From the NCBI GenBank assembly GCA_964559555.1, contig CAZLHM010000007.1:1942-65941 (forward strand): DNA of 64,000 nt. The letters are read 5' to 3'. Origin of the DNA: an uncultured Candidatus Bathyarchaeia archaeon (GTDB taxonomy: Archaea > Thermoproteota > Bathyarchaeia > 40CM-2-53-6). The notes below the pieces were generated by a model. The model searched no databases. It saw only the letters and a program-made list of their open reading frames with translations, and had not been told where the DNA came from. Position numbers and translations under genes: made by a program. This document shows, piece by piece, positions 12,732 through 20,777 of this stretch (the first letter of the stretch is position 1; the number at the start of each line of letters is the position of its first letter).

Positions 12732-12870
12732 CTGTCCAGGCCGATCCACTAGTCCTACCCGGGGCTTGGTCTTCACACAACACCGGTTGTTTCTGCTGAC
12801 GCAGTTTCAGCCGTCTCTCCGGAATATAGCGTTGCTGAACGCGGTGGATATTCGGGAAGGCGAGACAGTG

Positions 12871-13209
12871 ATGATCACTCGAGAGGGCAAGGTTCTACAG
12901 GTCGTCGAGACACATCTCTGCCAAGGATGCAGGGCTCTTGTCAAACATACTAGCTTCTCGATACGATACAACGCCTCACCGTCGGATCCCAACAGCGTGC
13001 TGAAGAGCTACCGATGGGTATGCTCCAGATGCGGCGCAGAAAGAGAGGAAACTAGGGAGACCGTAATTCCAAGCAGTAGAGCCCGTCTTATCGGTCGCAT
13101 CCTGAAGATGCGTGATGACTATGGAATACGGTCGATGAACATCTCGGCTGCAAACGCGAAACTGACTATTGAGATAGCCTTCGAAGATGCGCTCGTACAG
13201 TCGGCTTAA
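12871..13209 (+). CDS. Hypothetical small zinc-ribbon protein.
   Basis: Two CxxC pairs (LCQGCRAL and VCSRCGAE) are the only recognisable feature. The start is uncertain: ATG 12871, or TTG 12766 as in the track. Confidence 0.4.
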   Translation: MITREGKVLQVVETHLCQGCRALVKHTSFSIRYNASPSDPNSVLKSYRWVCSRCGAEREETRETVIPSSRARLIGRILKMRDDYGIRSMNISAANAKLTIEIAFEDALVQSA

Positions 13210-13254: not shown

Positions 13255-14370
13255 ATGGTGGAAGTCTCGATCGAGGATCAAGCCAGGGACATAACTACTT
13301 CAGCCAACGCAGGAATCCTTCGCATCGGCAAGATCTCGGCAGCCTTGCCAAACAAGTTCGCAACGACCGCCGAACTCAATGCAACTCGCACAGTTGGAAG
13401 CAAGGACATGCTTCCTGGCGAGGTGATTATCTCTGCCAAGCTCATGTATCCTGATTCACTCAAGAAGATCCTCAAGGAGGAAGACTCTCTCCGCAGCTTT
13501 GCACGACGCCTTTCACGTGAGTCAGGAGGATACGAGGATGTCGCAAGGCTGCTGTTTCTCATCTTCAAGGGAGAAGCATCGTACGGTAGTGCTGAAGACC
13601 TCAGAACGCTACTTGACCTTCAGTATTTCGCAGATATGGACGTTGTGACAGTTCAGCAGTCAGCTGAGATGAGTCCTGAGGATTTCGCGTCCCTGCTGAA
13701 GTTCGCTGAGAGGTGGCTGAGTCAGAAAGGCATCGACAAGCCGCTTATGCCAATAGTGCAGGCATCAGAGACCTTGCGCGAGTTTGAGCTTTTCGCTGCT
13801 CCTATACTGAAACGCAAGTTCGCTCTAATGGGGGTCGACATGAGGGGAGGCTTCCACTACTACACACTCAGAGCGATCGAGAAGGTCAAGAAGAAAGATC
13901 CTGGTGTGTGGATTCACGCGTTGCAGGTTCCTCCGAAGATCAGGTTTGCGCGCCACCTGCTACCATCTTCACAAGGAATGCTGATGCCCTATTTCGGGGT
14001 GGACAGTTTCTCTAGGTGGGTCGTGCCTCCGCCTCCTGTTCCTCTCACGAAAGACAAGATCAACGTGTTTGACAAGTCCGGATGGGGTGTCTTCAAGCGA
14101 AAGGAGTGGACTCAGCTCCATGGGAAGAAACTCACTTGCACATGCCCAATGTGCAAAGGCCAGAACCTCGAGGGATTCTACACCGGGAAGGTACTCACGG
14201 TCCTAGGCCGAAGCAAAATCCACGATCATTACGCTCAGCAAGATGAGCTGAAGAAAGCCTCAGAGAGCATACGCAAGCGCGAGTACACCACGTTGATCAA
14301 GAAGAAGAAGTACGCGAACCTATTCGTCGGAGAACTCAAGAAGTCGCTAGAGGCAGAAGCGAAGACCTAG
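13255..14370 (+). CDS. Divergent tRNA-guanine transglycosylase (TGT)/DpdA-like protein; substrate unknown.
   Basis: A C-terminal TGT-type zinc site C-x-C-x2-C-x22-H spans 14137..14223 (CTCPMC...TVLGRSKIHDHY, compared with E. coli TGT CDCYTC...ILGARLNTIHNLRYY). It is preceded by YFGVDSFS, which resembles the TGT GxDxFD strand. The N-terminal ~250 aa is not recognisable by eye. Confidence 0.45.
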   Translation: MVEVSIEDQARDITTSANAGILRIGKISAALPNKFATTAELNATRTVGSKDMLPGEVIISAKLMYPDSLKKILKEEDSLRSFARRLSRESGGYEDVARLLFLIFKGEASYGSAEDLRTLLDLQYFADMDVVTVQQSAEMSPEDFASLLKFAERWLSQKGIDKPLMPIVQASETLREFELFAAPILKRKFALMGVDMRGGFHYYTLRAIEKVKKKDPGVWIHALQVPPKIRFARHLLPSSQGMLMPYFGVDSFSRWVVPPPPVPLTKDKINVFDKSGWGVFKRKEWTQLHGKKLTCTCPMCKGQNLEGFYTGKVLTVLGRSKIHDHYAQQDELKKASESIRKREYTTLIKKKKYANLFVGELKKSLEAEAKT

Positions 14371-14948
14371 CTTGACGTCGCCGCCAGAAGCGTCATGAGG
14401 TCTCTCAGATTCACTTCCGACTTCGTGCGCCAACCAATCGAGAATCCTCCCGATTCGTCTTCCGTTAGGTACCCGTTCCGCACGAAGGCGTCTAGCAACG
14501 TCAGTGCCTTCCATCTTCCGACCTTCTCCGCCAGAAGCTTCTCTACCTCTTCTCGCGGTGCTTTGCCCTGTTTCGTGAGGACGTAAGCAATCGTTATCGT
14601 GAGAGCGGCTAGGTTGTCGATTCGCCACCCGGACAATCGAGCCTCCTTCGGAGTGAGGGTTCCTCTCAATGTAACCAAGTATCGAGCGTCCTCTGCTGCG
14701 TCTGTGACCGGCTCTTCAACGAGCGGCCTAGCCTGTGAATGTTCAGGCTCGATTCGCTTCACTTCGAGATCAAGTTCCGAAAGCAAGGCATCGACTTGCT
14801 TGACGATCTCCTTGTAGTTCTTCCCGAGCCCGGCTTTGAGTTCCCATTCCTTCGCGCCCGGCATCTTCCCTCGCTTGAACAGTAGTAGGTGGATCGCACG
14901 CTTGAGCTTCTCACCATAGAAACGTGTTTCGGCGCTAGCTTGTTCCAT
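14367..14948 (-). CDS. Tandem winged-helix protein, ScpB/KITE-like partner of the adjacent kleisin.
   Basis: The N-terminal half (AIHLLLFKRGKMPGAKEWELKAGLG...VDALLSELDLEVKRI) and the C-terminal half (REEVEKLLAEKVG...LLDAFVRNGYLTEDESGGFSIGWR) each follow the ScpB winged-helix pattern. It overlaps the kleisin gene by 14 nt. Confidence 0.5.
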   Translation of the reverse strand: MEQASAETRFYGEKLKRAIHLLLFKRGKMPGAKEWELKAGLGKNYKEIVKQVDALLSELDLEVKRIEPEHSQARPLVEEPVTDAAEDARYLVTLRGTLTPKEARLSGWRIDNLAALTITIAYVLTKQGKAPREEVEKLLAEKVGRWKALTLLDAFVRNGYLTEDESGGFSIGWRTKSEVNLRDLMTLLAATSS

Positions 14949-15792
14949 GAGTCATCTCACCCACACTTTCATCAAGAGCACTTCCGTTGCTGCGCACCAC
15001 TTGCTTGGGGATCGGAATCGGATAGCTGATCAATCCGTCGACCGCCTTTCCGGCAGGTGTCGAAAGCGGTACGAGTCTCATGCTATCGACTTCGCGGACG
15101 AGTCTCGCGAATCCATACGTGAGAAGGAAACTCACGAAGTAGGCGCGCTCTACGGTCTGCTGATATGTGTTACGTCGTACAAATGACCAGTAATCAACGG
15201 AGCTGCCTTCTCCAGTTCGGTCCATTAATTCCTTCCAGAGTCCTTGCAGATGCTTCTCGAAATCCTCGCGTGTAAGGATGCCGGATCTCACAAGATAGTC
15301 AAGGTCAGCGTCCACTGGGGGTGCGGCCTTTCCCATTGCGAGTCTCTTCCTTCTCGCCTCATATGAGAGCATCTGTTTCCAGTATTGGATTCCTTCCTGG
15401 ATAGCGTCAACCGTAAGTTGCTCTCGCTCGACTATTGGATGCCAAGACTTCAGGAAGATCTCACCGAGTCGTTTGACTGAGAGCGTGCGGAACTTCTTCT
15501 CAAGTAGCTCAGGGTTTGTGTAGAGCGAACTCGACTGGTATCGAAGTTGACTCCTCTGGAGGTTGAGTACTTCTGCCAAGTCCTTGATGGTTTCAGCGTC
15601 AAGGCAGTGATCCTCAAGCGATTCCCAGAATGGGAAGTACTTACGCAGCGTCTCAACGGCGAAGCTCACATCCATGAAGAACGGGTTGAATTTGTGATTT
15701 CTTATCGCCTCGCACGTCGAGATGAGCTCACGAAGCTCCTTTCGTCCCGACGGGAGTCTGACGCGCGCTGTCTTCTCGCTCGAGGGAGGCAT
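14935..15792 (-). CDS. ScpA-like kleisin.
   Basis: The C-terminal segment DYWSFVRRNTYQQTVERAYFVSFLLTYGFARLVREVDSMRLVPL matches the ScpA C-terminal winged-helix pattern. Its start codon directly abuts the stop of the SMC-like gene. Confidence 0.5.
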   Translation of the reverse strand: MPPSSEKTARVRLPSGRKELRELISTCEAIRNHKFNPFFMDVSFAVETLRKYFPFWESLEDHCLDAETIKDLAEVLNLQRSQLRYQSSSLYTNPELLEKKFRTLSVKRLGEIFLKSWHPIVEREQLTVDAIQEGIQYWKQMLSYEARRKRLAMGKAAPPVDADLDYLVRSGILTREDFEKHLQGLWKELMDRTGEGSSVDYWSFVRRNTYQQTVERAYFVSFLLTYGFARLVREVDSMRLVPLSTPAGKAVDGLISYPIPIPKQVVRSNGSALDESVGEMTHGTS

Positions 15793-17769
15793 CTATTTCA
15801 CCTTGGCCACGACGGAGCTGCCCTCAACGTTCTGTACAACTACTACGTGAACATCATGATCGGGCACTAGGACTTGGCCGGGCGTGATGGCGACGTACTG
15901 AGTGTTCTGCATCTCTCTTGCACTTGAAACGATCAGCCGTGAGATGACTTCCCGGTTCTTCGGGTCCATGTGAACATCGAACTCGTCAATTGCTCTGAAG
16001 GGGGAGGAGATGTGTTGTTGCAGTGCAAGCAAGAACGCCATCAGTGCGATGCTTCTTTCGCCACCGCTTTGGGTGAGTGAGTCAAGGCGGGTCGGAGGGA
16101 CGCCTTTGAATCCGACCAAGATGTCGAGTCCCGCTTGGTCGATACTCCTTGCTGTGCTGAGTTTCAGCTCGCCTTTCGCCCCAACTTCCTGCAAGATCTG
16201 GTTGTAGCGCATTCTGAGCGATTCCAGGAAGGATAACATCACCTCCTTCCATTTTTCGAGCCTCTTCTCCACCTCAGCCATGATCTCTTGTCTATTCCTT
16301 GCGAGCTGTTCCGTCTTTTCGCGTAGGTCTTCGTAGACCGCTGTGTATGAGGCATACATTTTCTCCACATCTTCTGAAAGGTGAGCAATGGGCCGGAGTT
16401 GCTCCTCGGTAGCACCGATGTCCATAATTATGTCGCCGATCTTTCTGGGGTTCTGGAACCTAGGACCCATCTTCTCGGCGTTCACTCTAAGCGGCTGAAT
16501 CTCCTCTTCTAGTATCCTGTGCTGGGTCTCAAGGTCAGCAAGCTCTTCGCTGAGCATCTTCCTCTTGAATCCGAGAACTTGCGTGTCAACGCGAGCGTCT
16601 ATCAGCCGAGAGAGTTCACCCTCGATTCGGGCATCCAATTCACGTAGTTCATTCTCCTTTCCCTGACGCCTTTCTCGAGCACGTCCCAGCTTCTGTTCTG
16701 CTTCGATGCGAACCCGAGTCCAGTCGTCCAGCCATTCCCTCATCGAGAGAAGCAGATCCGAGTGCTCCCCAGGGTTCGCGGGCACGGATTGCAGTGCGTC
16801 GCTGGTTTCATTATTGACATTTGGGAAGAGGCGCTTCTTGGCCTCATCAGAGAAACGCTGGACCCATTCAATTGTCGACGCAATTGACGATTCTTGGCGA
16901 ACGAGCTCCAAGTACCTATTGTGCAGTTCAAACCTATCCTTCAGATGCGTGTCGTATCTCTCTTGGCGGCGCTTGAGGAGCTCGTCCGCTTCCTGCAGTT
17001 TTTGGTCCGCGTTCTCGATCATTCTGGCTCTTGTTTCAATTCTCTCTCTGATACGTGAAAGGGCCTCTTCGCGTTTCTGAATCCTTGCCCAAGCCATCTC
17101 TCGCTTCAGATCTGCAAGCTTGGTGTCCAGAGTTTTCTTCAGTAGGAACCGCTCGTATTCTCTTCGCCAGTAGTCGTGCGTTTCCTTTGTCGACTCGAGA
17201 ACCTGAACGAGTGACTCCTCCTCGCCGGCTACCTTTGTGAGGCGATCTTGCGCTTCGAGGACATTGATGCGATAGGACTGGAATCCAACGGCTTCCTCCA
17301 GCATCTTCAGTTTGTCATTCGGAGGAATCGAAGCAAACTTACCCACCATAAGTTGATGCATGATGACGAGGATGTTGTCAGGGTTCAGACCGTACCTATC
17401 AAGAGCGTTTACGACATCGGTTTTGCTCACAGGGTGATCTTGGACAAGGTACTGGTAGGTTCCATTTCGCTTGAGGACCCGTGTAACGGTCACGTTGTCG
17501 ACGTGGTATTGAGGAAACGGTTTGCCGTGCTCTCTGGCCCGGTTGTCCAGTTGGAGGGTTATCCGAGCCTCGCTTGTGCCCCATCTTATTAGGTCGCTAA
17601 GGCGGCGAGCTCTCTCTGTGTACGTCTGGCCCAGAACGACTGAGATTGCGAGGAGAATGGATGACTTCCCTGCCCCGTTGGGGCCGCAGATCAAGTTTAG
17701 CCCTGACTCTAGTGGCACGTACGCATTCTCGTACGACATGAAGTTCGTCAGAGCTATGCCCTTGATCAT
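15793..17769 (-). CDS. Short SMC-family ATPase (658 aa) with SMC5/6-like head motifs and no hinge or zinc hook.
   Basis: The N-terminal head is IALTNFMSYE...LICGPNGAGKSSILLAISVVLG (Walker A). About 400 aa of heptad-rich coiled coil is broken once by FPNVNNETSDALQSVPANPGEHSD. The C-terminal head carries signature LTQSGGERSIALMAFLLALQ and Walker B/D-loop PFRAIDEFDVHMD. Confidence 0.7.
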   Translation of the reverse strand: MIKGIALTNFMSYENAYVPLESGLNLICGPNGAGKSSILLAISVVLGQTYTERARRLSDLIRWGTSEARITLQLDNRAREHGKPFPQYHVDNVTVTRVLKRNGTYQYLVQDHPVSKTDVVNALDRYGLNPDNILVIMHQLMVGKFASIPPNDKLKMLEEAVGFQSYRINVLEAQDRLTKVAGEEESLVQVLESTKETHDYWRREYERFLLKKTLDTKLADLKREMAWARIQKREEALSRIRERIETRARMIENADQKLQEADELLKRRQERYDTHLKDRFELHNRYLELVRQESSIASTIEWVQRFSDEAKKRLFPNVNNETSDALQSVPANPGEHSDLLLSMREWLDDWTRVRIEAEQKLGRARERRQGKENELRELDARIEGELSRLIDARVDTQVLGFKRKMLSEELADLETQHRILEEEIQPLRVNAEKMGPRFQNPRKIGDIIMDIGATEEQLRPIAHLSEDVEKMYASYTAVYEDLREKTEQLARNRQEIMAEVEKRLEKWKEVMLSFLESLRMRYNQILQEVGAKGELKLSTARSIDQAGLDILVGFKGVPPTRLDSLTQSGGERSIALMAFLLALQQHISSPFRAIDEFDVHMDPKNREVISRLIVSSAREMQNTQYVAITPGQVLVPDHDVHVVVVQNVEGSSVVAKVK

Positions 17770-17870: not shown

Positions 17871-20777
17871 CTAATCCCAGAAGCGTCGAGTCTCGGTATA
17901 CTTCAACTTCGCCTTCAACAGGTCGGCGTAGAATTCGTCATCTTGCGTGTGCATTCTAGCCAAGATGCTCGCTGCAGTCTGCGGGCCGACTCCCCAAGTC
18001 AGCATAGCCAGAATTGCCTGTTTTCCATATGAAAGAACCAAATCCGCGGCGCGCCGTGCTTGGCTAAGGCCACGCCTCTCTTCCTCGGTCAGTTTCTCCT
18101 TGAACTTCCACTTCCGTAGGATTCCGGGCACATCCGCTCTTACCTTATTCTGCAGGCTGAGCAACCCTGAACCGCATGTGAGACACCTTGGGAAGTCCGG
18201 GAGTTCGTCCGTCCGCTTCTCAGTCATCGCGGAACCGCACTGCATGCACATCAGCTGGACCCTCTGGGCTAGGAGTGCCGTTTTCATTCGCGACAGGCTG
18301 TCCTTCTTCGTGCTCTCTGGCGCAACCATCTCCGCGACTTCAACAAGCTTGTTCAGCATATAGAACGCCTGAGGCGAGGGGGAGTCCTGCGACAGCACGG
18401 GCACAACCGAGATCCTTCCGTGTGCAATCGAGCGCACAATTTCCTTGGCCGAGTCAAGATCAACCTCTCTAAGCTTCGCCTCCCGCATCGTTTCTTCGTG
18501 GATGGGTGTCGATTCAAAGCGTGATGAAAGGTCCAAGAGCGTTCGATCCGCAAAAAACAGACCGCGCGGAATCGCTCCGAACCTCTCAGCAATGAACTTC
18601 ATACCGTACGAGAAGGGAAAGCGGCGTTTCGAGTACCTAGTGAAGGCCTCCTCCATCGTCTCGCCGGACATTGAGAGCAGCTCTCTCGAGAGGGAATTGA
18701 TGGAATCCCGAGAGACTACGTCAGGAAGTTCGATCAGGATACGATATCCATCTGCCCATACGTTGCCGACAGCGCATCGTTCCGTAAGAATCTGATCGAA
18801 GACGTATGCGAGAGCCCTATTGACCGCCTCCCCGAATGACGCGTGGACTATCAGGTATCGGTCAAACCCCTCAACGAGGATGGTCTTGTCGCTTGGTACG
18901 GGATACCCCTTGGCAACATAGTTCTCGATCTCCTCGACGATGCGAGTCGCGGCCAGTCTCTCTACTGGATAGTGTCCGGACAGTTCCTCGATGGCATCCT
19001 CCTTGCCATGCGACTTCACGCTCTTCTCCACCTCTGACCTGATTTTCCCTACTTCTTGCGCGACTCCAAGCGGAACCGGGAGAATCTCGCCATCCCATCC
19101 CGGTATAGCGGCGGTCGGATCCTCGATTGGCACGACGTAGATGTTGCCATCCTCTGCAACCTGTGCGATCTCCCACACGCGGCCTCTGCAGATGAAGTGG
19201 ACTCCCTTCCTGGCACGTAGGAGCACGAATTCCTCCCCGAGGGTTCCAATTCTCGTTTGAGACGTGATGTCGAGTATTGTGTAACGTCGCTCGTCGGGTA
19301 TCATCGAGAGATTCCGGTAGTAGTACTCCCTAGTCTTGGAAGTCCTTGACAGGACGTTGCCTTTCCTACGAATCAGACCTAGCTTCTCCATGTACTTCGT
19401 CACCCAATCCAGTTGGTCGAGGGTGAGAGTGCTGAAGACACCTGATCTTCTAACGATCGAAAGTATCCCCTTTGGCGTCGCGTGATCAACATCCATTAGG
19501 ATGCCTGCCACTTGGTGTGCGAGTACATCAAGAGCATTCGAGTGTATACTGACTGATTCCAGTCGCTGCTCCTTTGCTCTCCTGATGATTGCAGCCGATT
19601 CAAGCACGTCCTCAGGATACGCGCAGATCACGATCCCCTCAGAGATGCGGCCTAGGCGATGACCTGATCTTCCAACTCGCTGAATGAGTGCAGAAACCTG
19701 CCGTGGCGAGAGATACTGCACAGTTAGATCAGCGCTACCGATGTCTATGCCAAGCTCGAGCGTCGACGTGCAGATGATCCCTCTGAGCTTGCCAGCCTTG
19801 AACTCGGTCTCGACACGAGAGCGTTCCTCACGTGATAAAGACCCGTGGTGAACTGCGATCCGTTTGTCCAGTGCACCCAATCTGAGGCCGAGCATCTCAG
19901 CATGCTGACGACTATTCACGAAAACCAGCGTCGAAGTGTGAGTGTCGACAAGCTCTCTGATTCTCGATATCCTAGCGGCGGCTTCGGGGCTCGTGTATAG
20001 AGACTGTGCAAGGTCGTGGTCCTCGGGAGTGGGATAAGGATACTCAACGTGGTACCTAGTCTCTTTGTCGATGCTGATGTTGATTGTCTCACATTTCTCC
20101 AGAGGACCAACCAAGAAGTTCGCGACCTTTTCAGGATCACCAACTGTCGCCGACAGTCCAATCCTCTGAAACTTACTTCCTGTGATTTGTCGCAGTCGCT
20201 CTAGCCCGATTGTGAGTTGGGCTCCACGCTTGTCTTGGCTGAGCTCGTGGATCTCGTCTATGATGACCGCTTGAACGGACTTCAGATGCTGTCTCATGGC
20301 GGCGCCTGGCAGTATCGCTTGGAGTGTCTCCGGTGTGGTTATGAGCATGTGTGGAGGATCTCTGCTCTGTTTTCGTCGCTGGGACGGGGGAGTATCGCCA
20401 TGGCGTATCTCGCATCGGATTCCTATCTTGTCGGTGAGTGCTGTGACTCTTCTGACCATGTCACGGTTCAGCGCACGAAGTGGAGTCACGTATAGAATCG
20501 CGATGCCTTTTCTAGATCGTCTCGTGAGATACTGACTAAGTATAGGCAGGAGCGCTGCCTCGGTCTTTCCAGTCGCCGTCGGCGCGATCAGAAGAACGTT
20601 TTCTCCGTTGAGAATGCGAGGAATTGCGAGCGCTTGAGGCGGAGTAGGTGTCGTCATTCCTAGGTCAGCGAGAGCGTCACTAATCGGTCGTGCGAGCAAT
20701 TGGAATGTGTTTTCCGATCCTATCGCCGAGCGAACGCTCAAACCAGTCTCCCTGTCGCGATCGCGAATCCAGTACAC
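17871..20777 (-). CDS. lhr: Lhr-family large ATP-dependent helicase (DEAD/DEAH box) with a C-terminal zinc ribbon.
   Basis: Motif I APTATGKTEAALLPIL, motif II IIDEIHEL, LSATVG and HHGSLSRE..R are present. A C-terminal CMQCGS...CLTCGS forms the zinc ribbon. The 968-aa size fits the family. Confidence 0.85.
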   Translation of the reverse strand: MYWIRDRDRETGLSVRSAIGSENTFQLLARPISDALADLGMTTPTPPQALAIPRILNGENVLLIAPTATGKTEAALLPILSQYLTRRSRKGIAILYVTPLRALNRDMVRRVTALTDKIGIRCEIRHGDTPPSQRRKQSRDPPHMLITTPETLQAILPGAAMRQHLKSVQAVIIDEIHELSQDKRGAQLTIGLERLRQITGSKFQRIGLSATVGDPEKVANFLVGPLEKCETINISIDKETRYHVEYPYPTPEDHDLAQSLYTSPEAAARISRIRELVDTHTSTLVFVNSRQHAEMLGLRLGALDKRIAVHHGSLSREERSRVETEFKAGKLRGIICTSTLELGIDIGSADLTVQYLSPRQVSALIQRVGRSGHRLGRISEGIVICAYPEDVLESAAIIRRAKEQRLESVSIHSNALDVLAHQVAGILMDVDHATPKGILSIVRRSGVFSTLTLDQLDWVTKYMEKLGLIRRKGNVLSRTSKTREYYYRNLSMIPDERRYTILDITSQTRIGTLGEEFVLLRARKGVHFICRGRVWEIAQVAEDGNIYVVPIEDPTAAIPGWDGEILPVPLGVAQEVGKIRSEVEKSVKSHGKEDAIEELSGHYPVERLAATRIVEEIENYVAKGYPVPSDKTILVEGFDRYLIVHASFGEAVNRALAYVFDQILTERCAVGNVWADGYRILIELPDVVSRDSINSLSRELLSMSGETMEEAFTRYSKRRFPFSYGMKFIAERFGAIPRGLFFADRTLLDLSSRFESTPIHEETMREAKLREVDLDSAKEIVRSIAHGRISVVPVLSQDSPSPQAFYMLNKLVEVAEMVAPESTKKDSLSRMKTALLAQRVQLMCMQCGSAMTEKRTDELPDFPRCLTCGSGLLSLQNKVRADVPGILRKWKFKEKLTEEERRGLSQARRAADLVLSYGKQAILAMLTWGVGPQTAASILARMHTQDDEFYADLLKAKLKYTETRRFWD

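Follow-up and report, generated by a model that had tools for sequence, protein, structure and literature searches.

A TGT-fold protein subfamily genomically coupled to an Smc5/6-like mini-SMC cassette in Bathyarchaeia

Introduction

What is the role of a protein which carries the zinc signature of a tRNA-guanine transglycosylase (TGT) and whose gene runs tail-to-tail into an SMC-like operon? This question is raised by a stretch of 64,000 nucleotides (nt) from an uncultured Candidatus Bathyarchaeia archaeon (GenBank assembly GCA_964559555.1, contig CAZLHM010000007.1, positions 1,942 to 65,941 of the forward strand), referred to as the window in the following. An open reading frame (ORF) on its plus strand (13255..14370) encodes a TGT-like protein of 371 amino acids (aa), which an initial annotation described as an orphan, highly divergent TGT- or DpdA-like protein and, plausibly, as a DNA- or RNA-base-exchange enzyme with a new specificity. 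Here, the protein is assigned to a previously undescribed subfamily of the TGT superfamily. Its gene is coupled to one clade of Smc5/6-like cassettes encoding a mini-SMC ATPase, a kleisin and a KITE-like protein, and its active site, as far as alignments can place it, lacks the aspartate triad of characterised TGT-family enzymes.

Results

The ORF starts with an ATG at 13255 and ends with a stop codon at 14368-14370; the product has an isoelectric point of 9.5. The sequence features reported in the initial annotation were all confirmed. The predicted zinc site C295-x-C297-x2-C300-x22-H323 extends from 14137, the first nucleotide of C295, to 14223, the last nucleotide of H323, and TVLGRSKIHDHY was found in the protein. 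The family profile aligns this site with the C279/C281/C284/H307 region of the archaeosine TGT (ArcTGT) of P. horikoshii (PDB code 1iq8). The motif G248-V-D250-S-F-S253 (13996..14013), counterpart of the G-x-D-x-F-D strand of TGTs, is located 45 residues before C295. The stop codon overlaps that of a 193-aa gene on the minus strand by 4 nt, and a small ORF with a CxxC...CxxC pattern lies next to the TGT-like gene on its other side.

The fold of the protein was predicted with AlphaFold2 from an alignment of 69 sequences. This model (predicted local distance difference test score, pLDDT, 95.4; predicted TM-score, pTM, 0.94) was used in place of one obtained with a shallow alignment of 23 sequences (pLDDT 64.8), and it shows a (beta/alpha)8 barrel with an N-terminal beta-lid and a C-terminal zinc subdomain. 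As the TGT-like fold fills residues 2-365, a PUA domain is absent, as had been noted before. When the model was compared with one representative per PDB sequence cluster, ArcTGT (1iq8_A) ranked highest with Z 24.8 (311-313 residues aligned, root-mean-square deviation 3.5, model residues 2..365), followed by bacterial TGT (Z 24.2, 314 residues), the non-catalytic TGT homologue QTRT2 (Z 22.7, 311 residues), DpdA (7ui4; Z 15.8, 279 residues) and CBASS Cap10 (Z 14.5, 268 residues), while generic TIM barrels did not exceed Z 13.6. The top PDB matches returned by Foldseek were all TGTs (E 2e-12). Sequence profiles lead to the same superfamily. A profile of 47 diverse members matched 1iq8 with E 6.7e-9 at the N-terminal lid motif and the zinc region, and 8 of the 47 reached the TGT family PF01702 individually. 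In hhalign comparisons with ArcTGT, the 69-sequence family scored a probability of 98.1% (E 5.5e-13, 316 columns, against 31 Bathyarchaeia ArcTGTs) and a distant subfamily, described below, scored 93.8%. Judged from these profiles and from the predicted model, membership in the TGT superfamily is secure, so that the fold proposed in the initial annotation was borne out. The likeness to DpdA was not, since the structural scores place the protein nearer to the tRNA TGTs and QTRT2.

The divergence of the protein is nevertheless high, as claimed at the outset: searches of Pfam, NCBIfam and PADLOC gave no match for the protein itself, a phmmer search against the PDB gave none either, and a profile of the close clade yielded only noise there. 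Neither Pfam nor NCBIfam offers a model for the family, whose members are annotated as 'hypothetical' or as 'Zn-finger nucleic acid-binding protein'. The designation as an orphan did not hold. A database clustered at 90% identity contained 190 homologues at E <= 1e-3, nearly all of them 362-374 aa long; those with an organism name were Bathyarchaeia metagenome-assembled genomes (MAGs), and none carried a Pfam domain. An exhaustive HMMER search over 1.84 billion representatives clustered at 50% identity gave 74 matches and reached a wider family of 365-400-aa proteins with 20-30% identity, and a search of the ESM Atlas returned only unnamed archaeal clusters. Longer fused forms were not found, which is weak evidence, and no relatives were found in viral contigs. 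Within Bathyarchaeia, the gene is present as a single copy in 30 of 41 related genomes and in 21 of the 24 belonging to the same family. An alignment of 23 sequences sharing 50-86% identity contains about 80 invariant columns, indicating strong purifying selection; the protein is thus not a decaying relic, an alternative that the initial annotation had considered. The zinc motif is likewise no chance match, as H323 is invariant and C295, C297 and C300 are more than 90% conserved in 69 members down to 16% identity.

A distant subfamily of 330-415-aa ORFs (E 1e-17 to 6e-27; loci L088-L092 and L096 in genomes G416, G283, G346, G113, G329 and G323) occurs in complete genomes of low G+C content from another family of the phylum, where it has no SMC-like neighbour. 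It keeps an I-P-D motif after strand 4, and its nucleophile position is also occupied by Ser. At L089 there is an overlap between the gene and a small ORF upstream of it, and a Schlafen AlbA_2 protein is encoded nearby; the surroundings of L088 and L089 contained no clear partner genes.

The residues expected in the active site were located by aligning the ArcTGT of this genome to 1iq8. The landmarks in 1iq8 are the acid/base residue D95 in V-D-S-G-S-F-Q, the base-reading D130 in F-L-D-I-P and D246/D249 in G-V-D-L-F-D, of which D249 is the second Asp and the nucleophile, together with the zinc ligands C279, C281, C284 and H307. In Z. mobilis TGT, the equivalent catalytic residues are the nucleophile D280, the acid/base D102 and the base-reading D156. 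These three aspartates are invariant across the families of TGT and DpdA (PMC10164549), and Cap10 retains analogous ones. In the family described here, the 69 aligned members all share the pattern [FY]-G-[IV]-D-[ST]-x-S on strand 8. What had been taken for the catalytic G-x-D-x-F-D strand is therefore only partly preserved: its first Asp, D250, is retained, and the nucleophile Asp is replaced by Ser253 in this protein and by Ser, Asn, Thr, Ala or Cys across the 69 members. A separate hhalign run with only the distant subfamily placed F-G-I-D-T-x-S opposite L-G-C-D-L-F-D of ArcTGT and paired the subsequent R-F-D...L-G with the ArcTGT hairpin R-Y-x-T-x-x-G (R261-Y-M in its own numbering). The position of the base-reading Asp after strand 4 is occupied by Q134-Q135 here, mostly by Gln or His in the SMC-linked subfamily and by I-P-D/N in the distant one. 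After strand 3 (residues 97-104), where the acid/base residue would be expected, there is no conserved Asp; the residues are K/R105-G106-E/D107 in the close clade, and in the wider family this position is gapped or variable within a region aligned at low confidence. According to these alignments, the Asp triad of the characterised active TGT-family enzymes is lost, and with the triad missing the canonical double-displacement chemistry would not be available.

Other parts of the barrel are remodelled and conserved. Strand 7 carries H221-A-L-Q-V-P-P-K228 (13915..13938) in place of P-V-H-L-F-G-A-G-H-P of ArcTGT; H221 is more than 90% conserved family-wide, and the close clade shows no variation at Q224, P226, P227 and K228. 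Strand 8 is followed by a loop and hairpin, W255-VV-PPPP-V-P-LTKDKIN-VFD (14017..14073), which constitute the signature insert of the SMC-linked subfamily. The W-VV-PPPP loop is kept from Bathyarchaeia to members from Methanomassiliicoccales and Nitrososphaerota and is missing from the distant subfamily without SMC linkage. The loop up to LTKDKIN, both subfamily-specific and invariant, is a candidate interface. To our knowledge, this would be the first prokaryotic TGT subfamily to lose the whole Asp triad under strong purifying selection.

The genomic neighbourhood gave the second line of evidence. Of 12 loci taken from relatives of several families and examined by tblastn with the window proteins as queries, 11 contain the cassette next to the TGT-like gene. 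A scan of 185,579 species genomes, with a 14-sequence alignment as query, gave 59 loci of the TGT-like gene. Most belong to Bathyarchaeia; the others come from Methanomassiliicoccales MAGs (L148, L150, L152), a Thermoplasmatota MAG (L147), a MAG labelled Halobacteriales (L151) and a Nitrososphaerota MAG (L156). The cassette is present in about 49 of the roughly 54 loci with enough flank to judge, so that the co-occurrence test proposed in the initial annotation proved strongly positive. Five arrangements were observed: convergent as in this window; convergent with a gap of about 1 kb; TGT-like gene upstream and co-directional, with a lineage-specific insert of 1.6-1.9 kb; divergent (L156); and, in Methanomassiliicoccales MAGs, a tight operon in the order TGT-like, mini-SMC, kleisin and KITE, with a gap of 12 nt at L148 and abutting coordinates at L150. 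The genes intervening in the gapped arrangements are lineage-specific. Presence and absence also co-vary: of 41 related genomes, about 27 contain gene and cassette together and 7 lack the two, and the remaining cases are mostly incomplete genomes or contig ends.

Some of the taxonomic labels need caution. The loci L114, L121 and L139 stem from MAGs labelled Acidiferrales bacterium, Methylomirabilota bacterium and 'bacterium'; an archaeal locus with Bathyarchaeia-like flanks in such MAGs is probably the result of mis-binning. The labels 'Halobacteriales' (L151) and 'Thermoplasmatota' (L147) also deserve checking.

A maximum-likelihood tree of the mini-SMC proteins contains a split with 99% support in the Shimodaira-Hasegawa-like approximate likelihood ratio test (SH-aLRT). 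It separates a clade of 17 TGT-linked and 2 unlinked cassettes from the cassettes of other orders, with which the long-branched L156 is placed; modules from Thermoplasmatota are nested within the TGT-linked clade. The tree of the TGT-like proteins recovers the same groups. Both trees were built quickly from related genomes and serve as a consistency check only. Their agreement indicates that the four genes diversify together and apparently also pass from phylum to phylum as a unit. The TGT-like protein is thus genomically coupled to one clade of the Smc5/6-like mini-SMC cassette.

In the window, the cassette occupies the minus strand opposite the TGT-like gene. Its most distal member encodes a 658-aa mini-SMC ATPase (15793..17769), which matches SMC_N with E 4.7e-35 and SMC_prok_A with both halves of the head. 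The adjoining gene encodes an Nse4-like kleisin of 285 aa (14935..15792); the kleisin profile matches yeast Nse4 (E 2.7e-6) and human NSE4/EID3 (E 3.6e-6), with ScpA weaker at 0.2, and Nse4_C was found in 5 of 13 members of the kleisin family. The 193-aa protein encoded tail-to-tail with the TGT-like gene (14367..14948) was called KITE-like from a PADLOC match to JetB (E 5.8e-4) and from the gene order, which is weak evidence for this identity; sequence profiles gave no Pfam or PDB support for the label. The cassette is near-universal in Bathyarchaeia, its KITE-like gene being present in 96 of 121 genomes. A full-length SMC protein is encoded elsewhere in the same genome by a 1195-aa ORF (G000:C10:41568-45077), so that the mini-SMC cassette represents a second SMC system. 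Archaeal Smc5/6-like complexes have been proposed as relatives of eukaryotic SMC5/6: SMC homologues in MAGs of Bathyarchaeota and further TACK archaea were reported to group with SMC5/6 (Yoshinaga and Inagaki 2021), and these may belong to the family of the mini-SMC described here.

The TGT-like gene does not encode the housekeeping enzyme of this lineage, a further alternative raised initially, because a separate canonical ArcTGT is present on contig C10 (564-576-aa ORF, G000:C10:18445-19413; PF01702 262 bits; 1iq8 E 2.8e-90). With 38 of 41 genomes encoding it, ArcTGT is close to universal in the class. Besides this enzyme, only part of the pathway genes listed in the initial annotation was recovered from the 93%-complete genome. 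A PTPS/QueD-like gene is present; for QueC only PP-loop matches of 22 bits in ORFs of the wrong size were obtained, the best match for QueE had 23 bits, and a separate ArcS was not found. There is thus no support for a dedicated deazaguanine pathway feeding a second transglycosylase, although absence from a MAG is weak evidence. An ArcTGT without convincing QueC and QueE may mean either that preQ0 is salvaged or that the genes are located in the missing ~7% of the MAG.

Other genes near the TGT-like gene show less constant association. A small CxxC...CxxC protein is encoded upstream in the same orientation (start at 12766 or 12871, end at 13209), separated by 45 nt, and its membership in the module is uncertain. 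It has no Pfam or NCBIfam match. Counterparts upstream of the TGT-like gene share 62-84% identity in the close relatives L098 and L102 and 32-38% in one group of Bathyarchaeia loci; tblastn did not detect the protein upstream of the TGT-like gene in L099-L101 or in other phyla. Further neighbours are an M29 peptidase and an Lhr-type helicase (17871-20777, minus strand), the latter upstream of the cassette. The helicase does not belong to the conserved module, since it adjoins the cassette in none but the closest relatives (L098-L100, L103), and its PADLOC matches (BrxHI and DpdJ, also a DpdF model) look like generic helicase similarity. The G+C content is uniform throughout the window, so nothing flags the region of the TGT-like gene as foreign.

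Discussion

The comparison with ArcTGT of P. horikoshii (1IQ8) and bacterial TGT of Z. mobilis defines what the new subfamily has kept and what it has changed. The (beta/alpha)8 barrel, the N-terminal beta-lid and the CxCxxC...H zinc subdomain are common to all of them in the predicted model, as are L-x-D-L-Q, the G-x-D strand, the helix that follows the zinc site and, in the case of distant members, the lid motif D..G.R.G...TP. At 14-16% identity, in contrast, the TGT-like protein has no Pfam TGT match and lacks C1, C2 and PUA, its fold ending at about residue 365 of 371 aa, whereas ArcTGTs comprise about 540-580 aa and contain these domains. None of the three aspartates is conserved, HLFGAGHP is changed to HALQVPPK, the PPPP insert adds 12-20 residues after strand 8, and the gene is linked to SMC-like rather than to tRNA-modification genes. 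A related combination is known from QTRT2 (QTRTD1, 6FV5), which retains the TGT fold and the zinc site while catalytic and substrate-binding residues are replaced, the nucleophile Asp by Glu and the acid/base Asp by Cys, and which is non-catalytic (PMC6165067). QTRT2 shares only 12% identity with the TGT-like protein and pairs with a catalytic TGT to act on tRNA, whereas the partner genes here encode mini-SMC, kleisin and KITE-like proteins.

SMC modules with an additional gene are known as well. The non-core subunits JetD/MksG of Wadjet/MksBEFG and Nse2 and Nse5/6 of Smc5/6 resemble the putative TGT-like partner in that each adds an extra gene to an SMC, kleisin and KITE module in part of the range of its family. 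None of these factors, among them the Toprim nuclease JetD and the SUMO ligase Nse2, is known to have a TGT fold. Literature searches returned nothing linking a TGT-like or TGT-fold protein with SMC or kleisin, and a preprint on SMC evolution (10.1101/2024.01.07.573240) does not mention TGT. Both the TGT-superfamily subfamily and this type of putative accessory gene for an SMC module appear to be new.

The persistent linkage combined with the loss of the Asp triad probably points to an accessory factor rather than to a base-exchange enzyme. We give about an even chance to the interpretation that the protein is a non-catalytic accessory factor of the Smc5/6-like complex, based on genomic linkage and residue loss. 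Such a factor would not exchange guanine for 7-deazaguanine. By analogy with QTRT2, its remodelled, basic barrel face and its zinc subdomain might instead bind nucleic acid or another ligand, and the protein, possibly a dimer like other TGTs, would act in targeting, loading, sensing or regulation of the complex. The interpretation of the initial annotation is accordingly supported in part: the superfamily was recognised correctly, and the lack of conserved catalytic aspartates, which it had itself named as speaking against an enzyme, argues against canonical base exchange.

Several observations weigh against a non-catalytic accessory factor. The residue equivalences rest on profile alignments and the predicted order of strands, not on superposed coordinates, and one hhalign run set D273 of a V-F-D motif opposite the nucleophile. 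We rejected D273 as the nucleophile because the family has D, N, S or T at this position, because GIDTxS is paired with GCDLFD in the second hhalign alignment, and because the latter matches the R-F-D strand with that hairpin of ArcTGT which is located between its GxDxFD strand and its zinc site, a pairing which explains the placement of V-F-D273 in the first run. The most conserved residues (K105-G-E, Q134-Q135, D195-M-x-G-G-F, H221..Q224-V-P-P-K and D250-S-F-S-R-W) are predicted to be located where the barrel strands reach their C-terminal ends, on the face that is usually catalytic in TIM barrels. This distribution implies some role for that face, and it would fit a working pocket, possibly a catalytic one. 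On the genomic side, two high-quality genomes of the same order (G031, G034) have the cassette without the TGT-like gene, and most other Bathyarchaeia orders have the cassette, but no TGT-like gene was found within 16 kb of it or elsewhere in their genomes; the protein is therefore not a core subunit. The gene is unlinked in L120, L137-L140, G017, G022 and G032. In most Bathyarchaeia the gene and the cassette face each other, which means that they are not transcribed together in those genomes. In a shallow clade of soil Bathyarchaeia the gene has moved off the cassette, and in G017 both are found on one contig, 64 kb apart.

The conserved barrel face also bears on whether the protein is an active enzyme that works with the SMC-like ATPase through a new chemistry or on a new substrate, as a base-flipping glycosylase or base-exchange enzyme for DNA or RNA with residues outside the canonical Asp triad, or by a protein modification as in Cap10. 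This is possible, if somewhat unlikely. Across the family, conservation of the residues of the catalytic face, D250 included, is very strong, the zinc subdomain has stayed intact, and the TGT fold has already been retooled for DNA in DpdA and for protein in Cap10. DpdA also offers the analogy of an enzyme that depends on its ATPase partner DpdB, whose ATP hydrolysis it requires (PMC10164549). Yet all characterised active members keep the three aspartates, none of which is conserved here; neither QueC nor QueE was detected in the genome, which is 93% complete, no QueC-like, DpdB or DpdC partner is encoded nearby, and PADLOC and NCBIfam contained no matching DpdA model. The same negatives weigh on the narrower proposal of a DpdA-type insertase of 7-deazaguanine into DNA, which we consider very improbable. 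The protein does have a TGT-superfamily barrel of about the size of DpdA and, like DpdA, no PUA domain, and the nearby Lhr helicase shows generic matches to the DpdJ and DpdF models, but this helicase adjoins the cassette only in the closest relatives. DpdA (7UI4) itself shares 9% identity and scores Z 15.8 as compared with 24.8 for ArcTGT, and it retains D95, D130 and D256, invariant in DpdA, the equivalents of which are absent here.

As the closest structures are those of tRNA TGTs and QTRT2, one may ask instead whether the protein binds or modifies RNA independently of the SMC-like complex, for example as a QTRT2-like partner of ArcTGT, the adjacency of the genes being inherited synteny. 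Separate transcription in most Bathyarchaeia and the unlinked genes would agree with such a role. This explanation is nonetheless unlikely, because the linkage persists through five gene orders, a tight operon among them, and extends into other phyla, the two gene trees agree, and the TGT-like gene is confined to lineages with one cassette clade whereas ArcTGT is near-universal.

An accessory factor of the Smc5/6-like complex would be of interest in two respects. For SMC biology, where Smc5/6 and Wadjet/MksBEFG gain specificity from extra subunits, a conserved TGT-fold partner would offer a testable handle on targeting in archaea. For the TGT superfamily, it would represent a further re-use of the fold after DpdA, which acts on DNA, and Cap10, which acts on protein. 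On a rather more speculative footing, the TGT-fold protein might be a base-flipping DNA reader, or a new DNA- or protein-modifying enzyme, that directs the Smc5/6-like complex to foreign, damaged or marked DNA. If this were true, it would constitute a new class of SMC targeting or effector subunit derived from a tRNA-modification enzyme.

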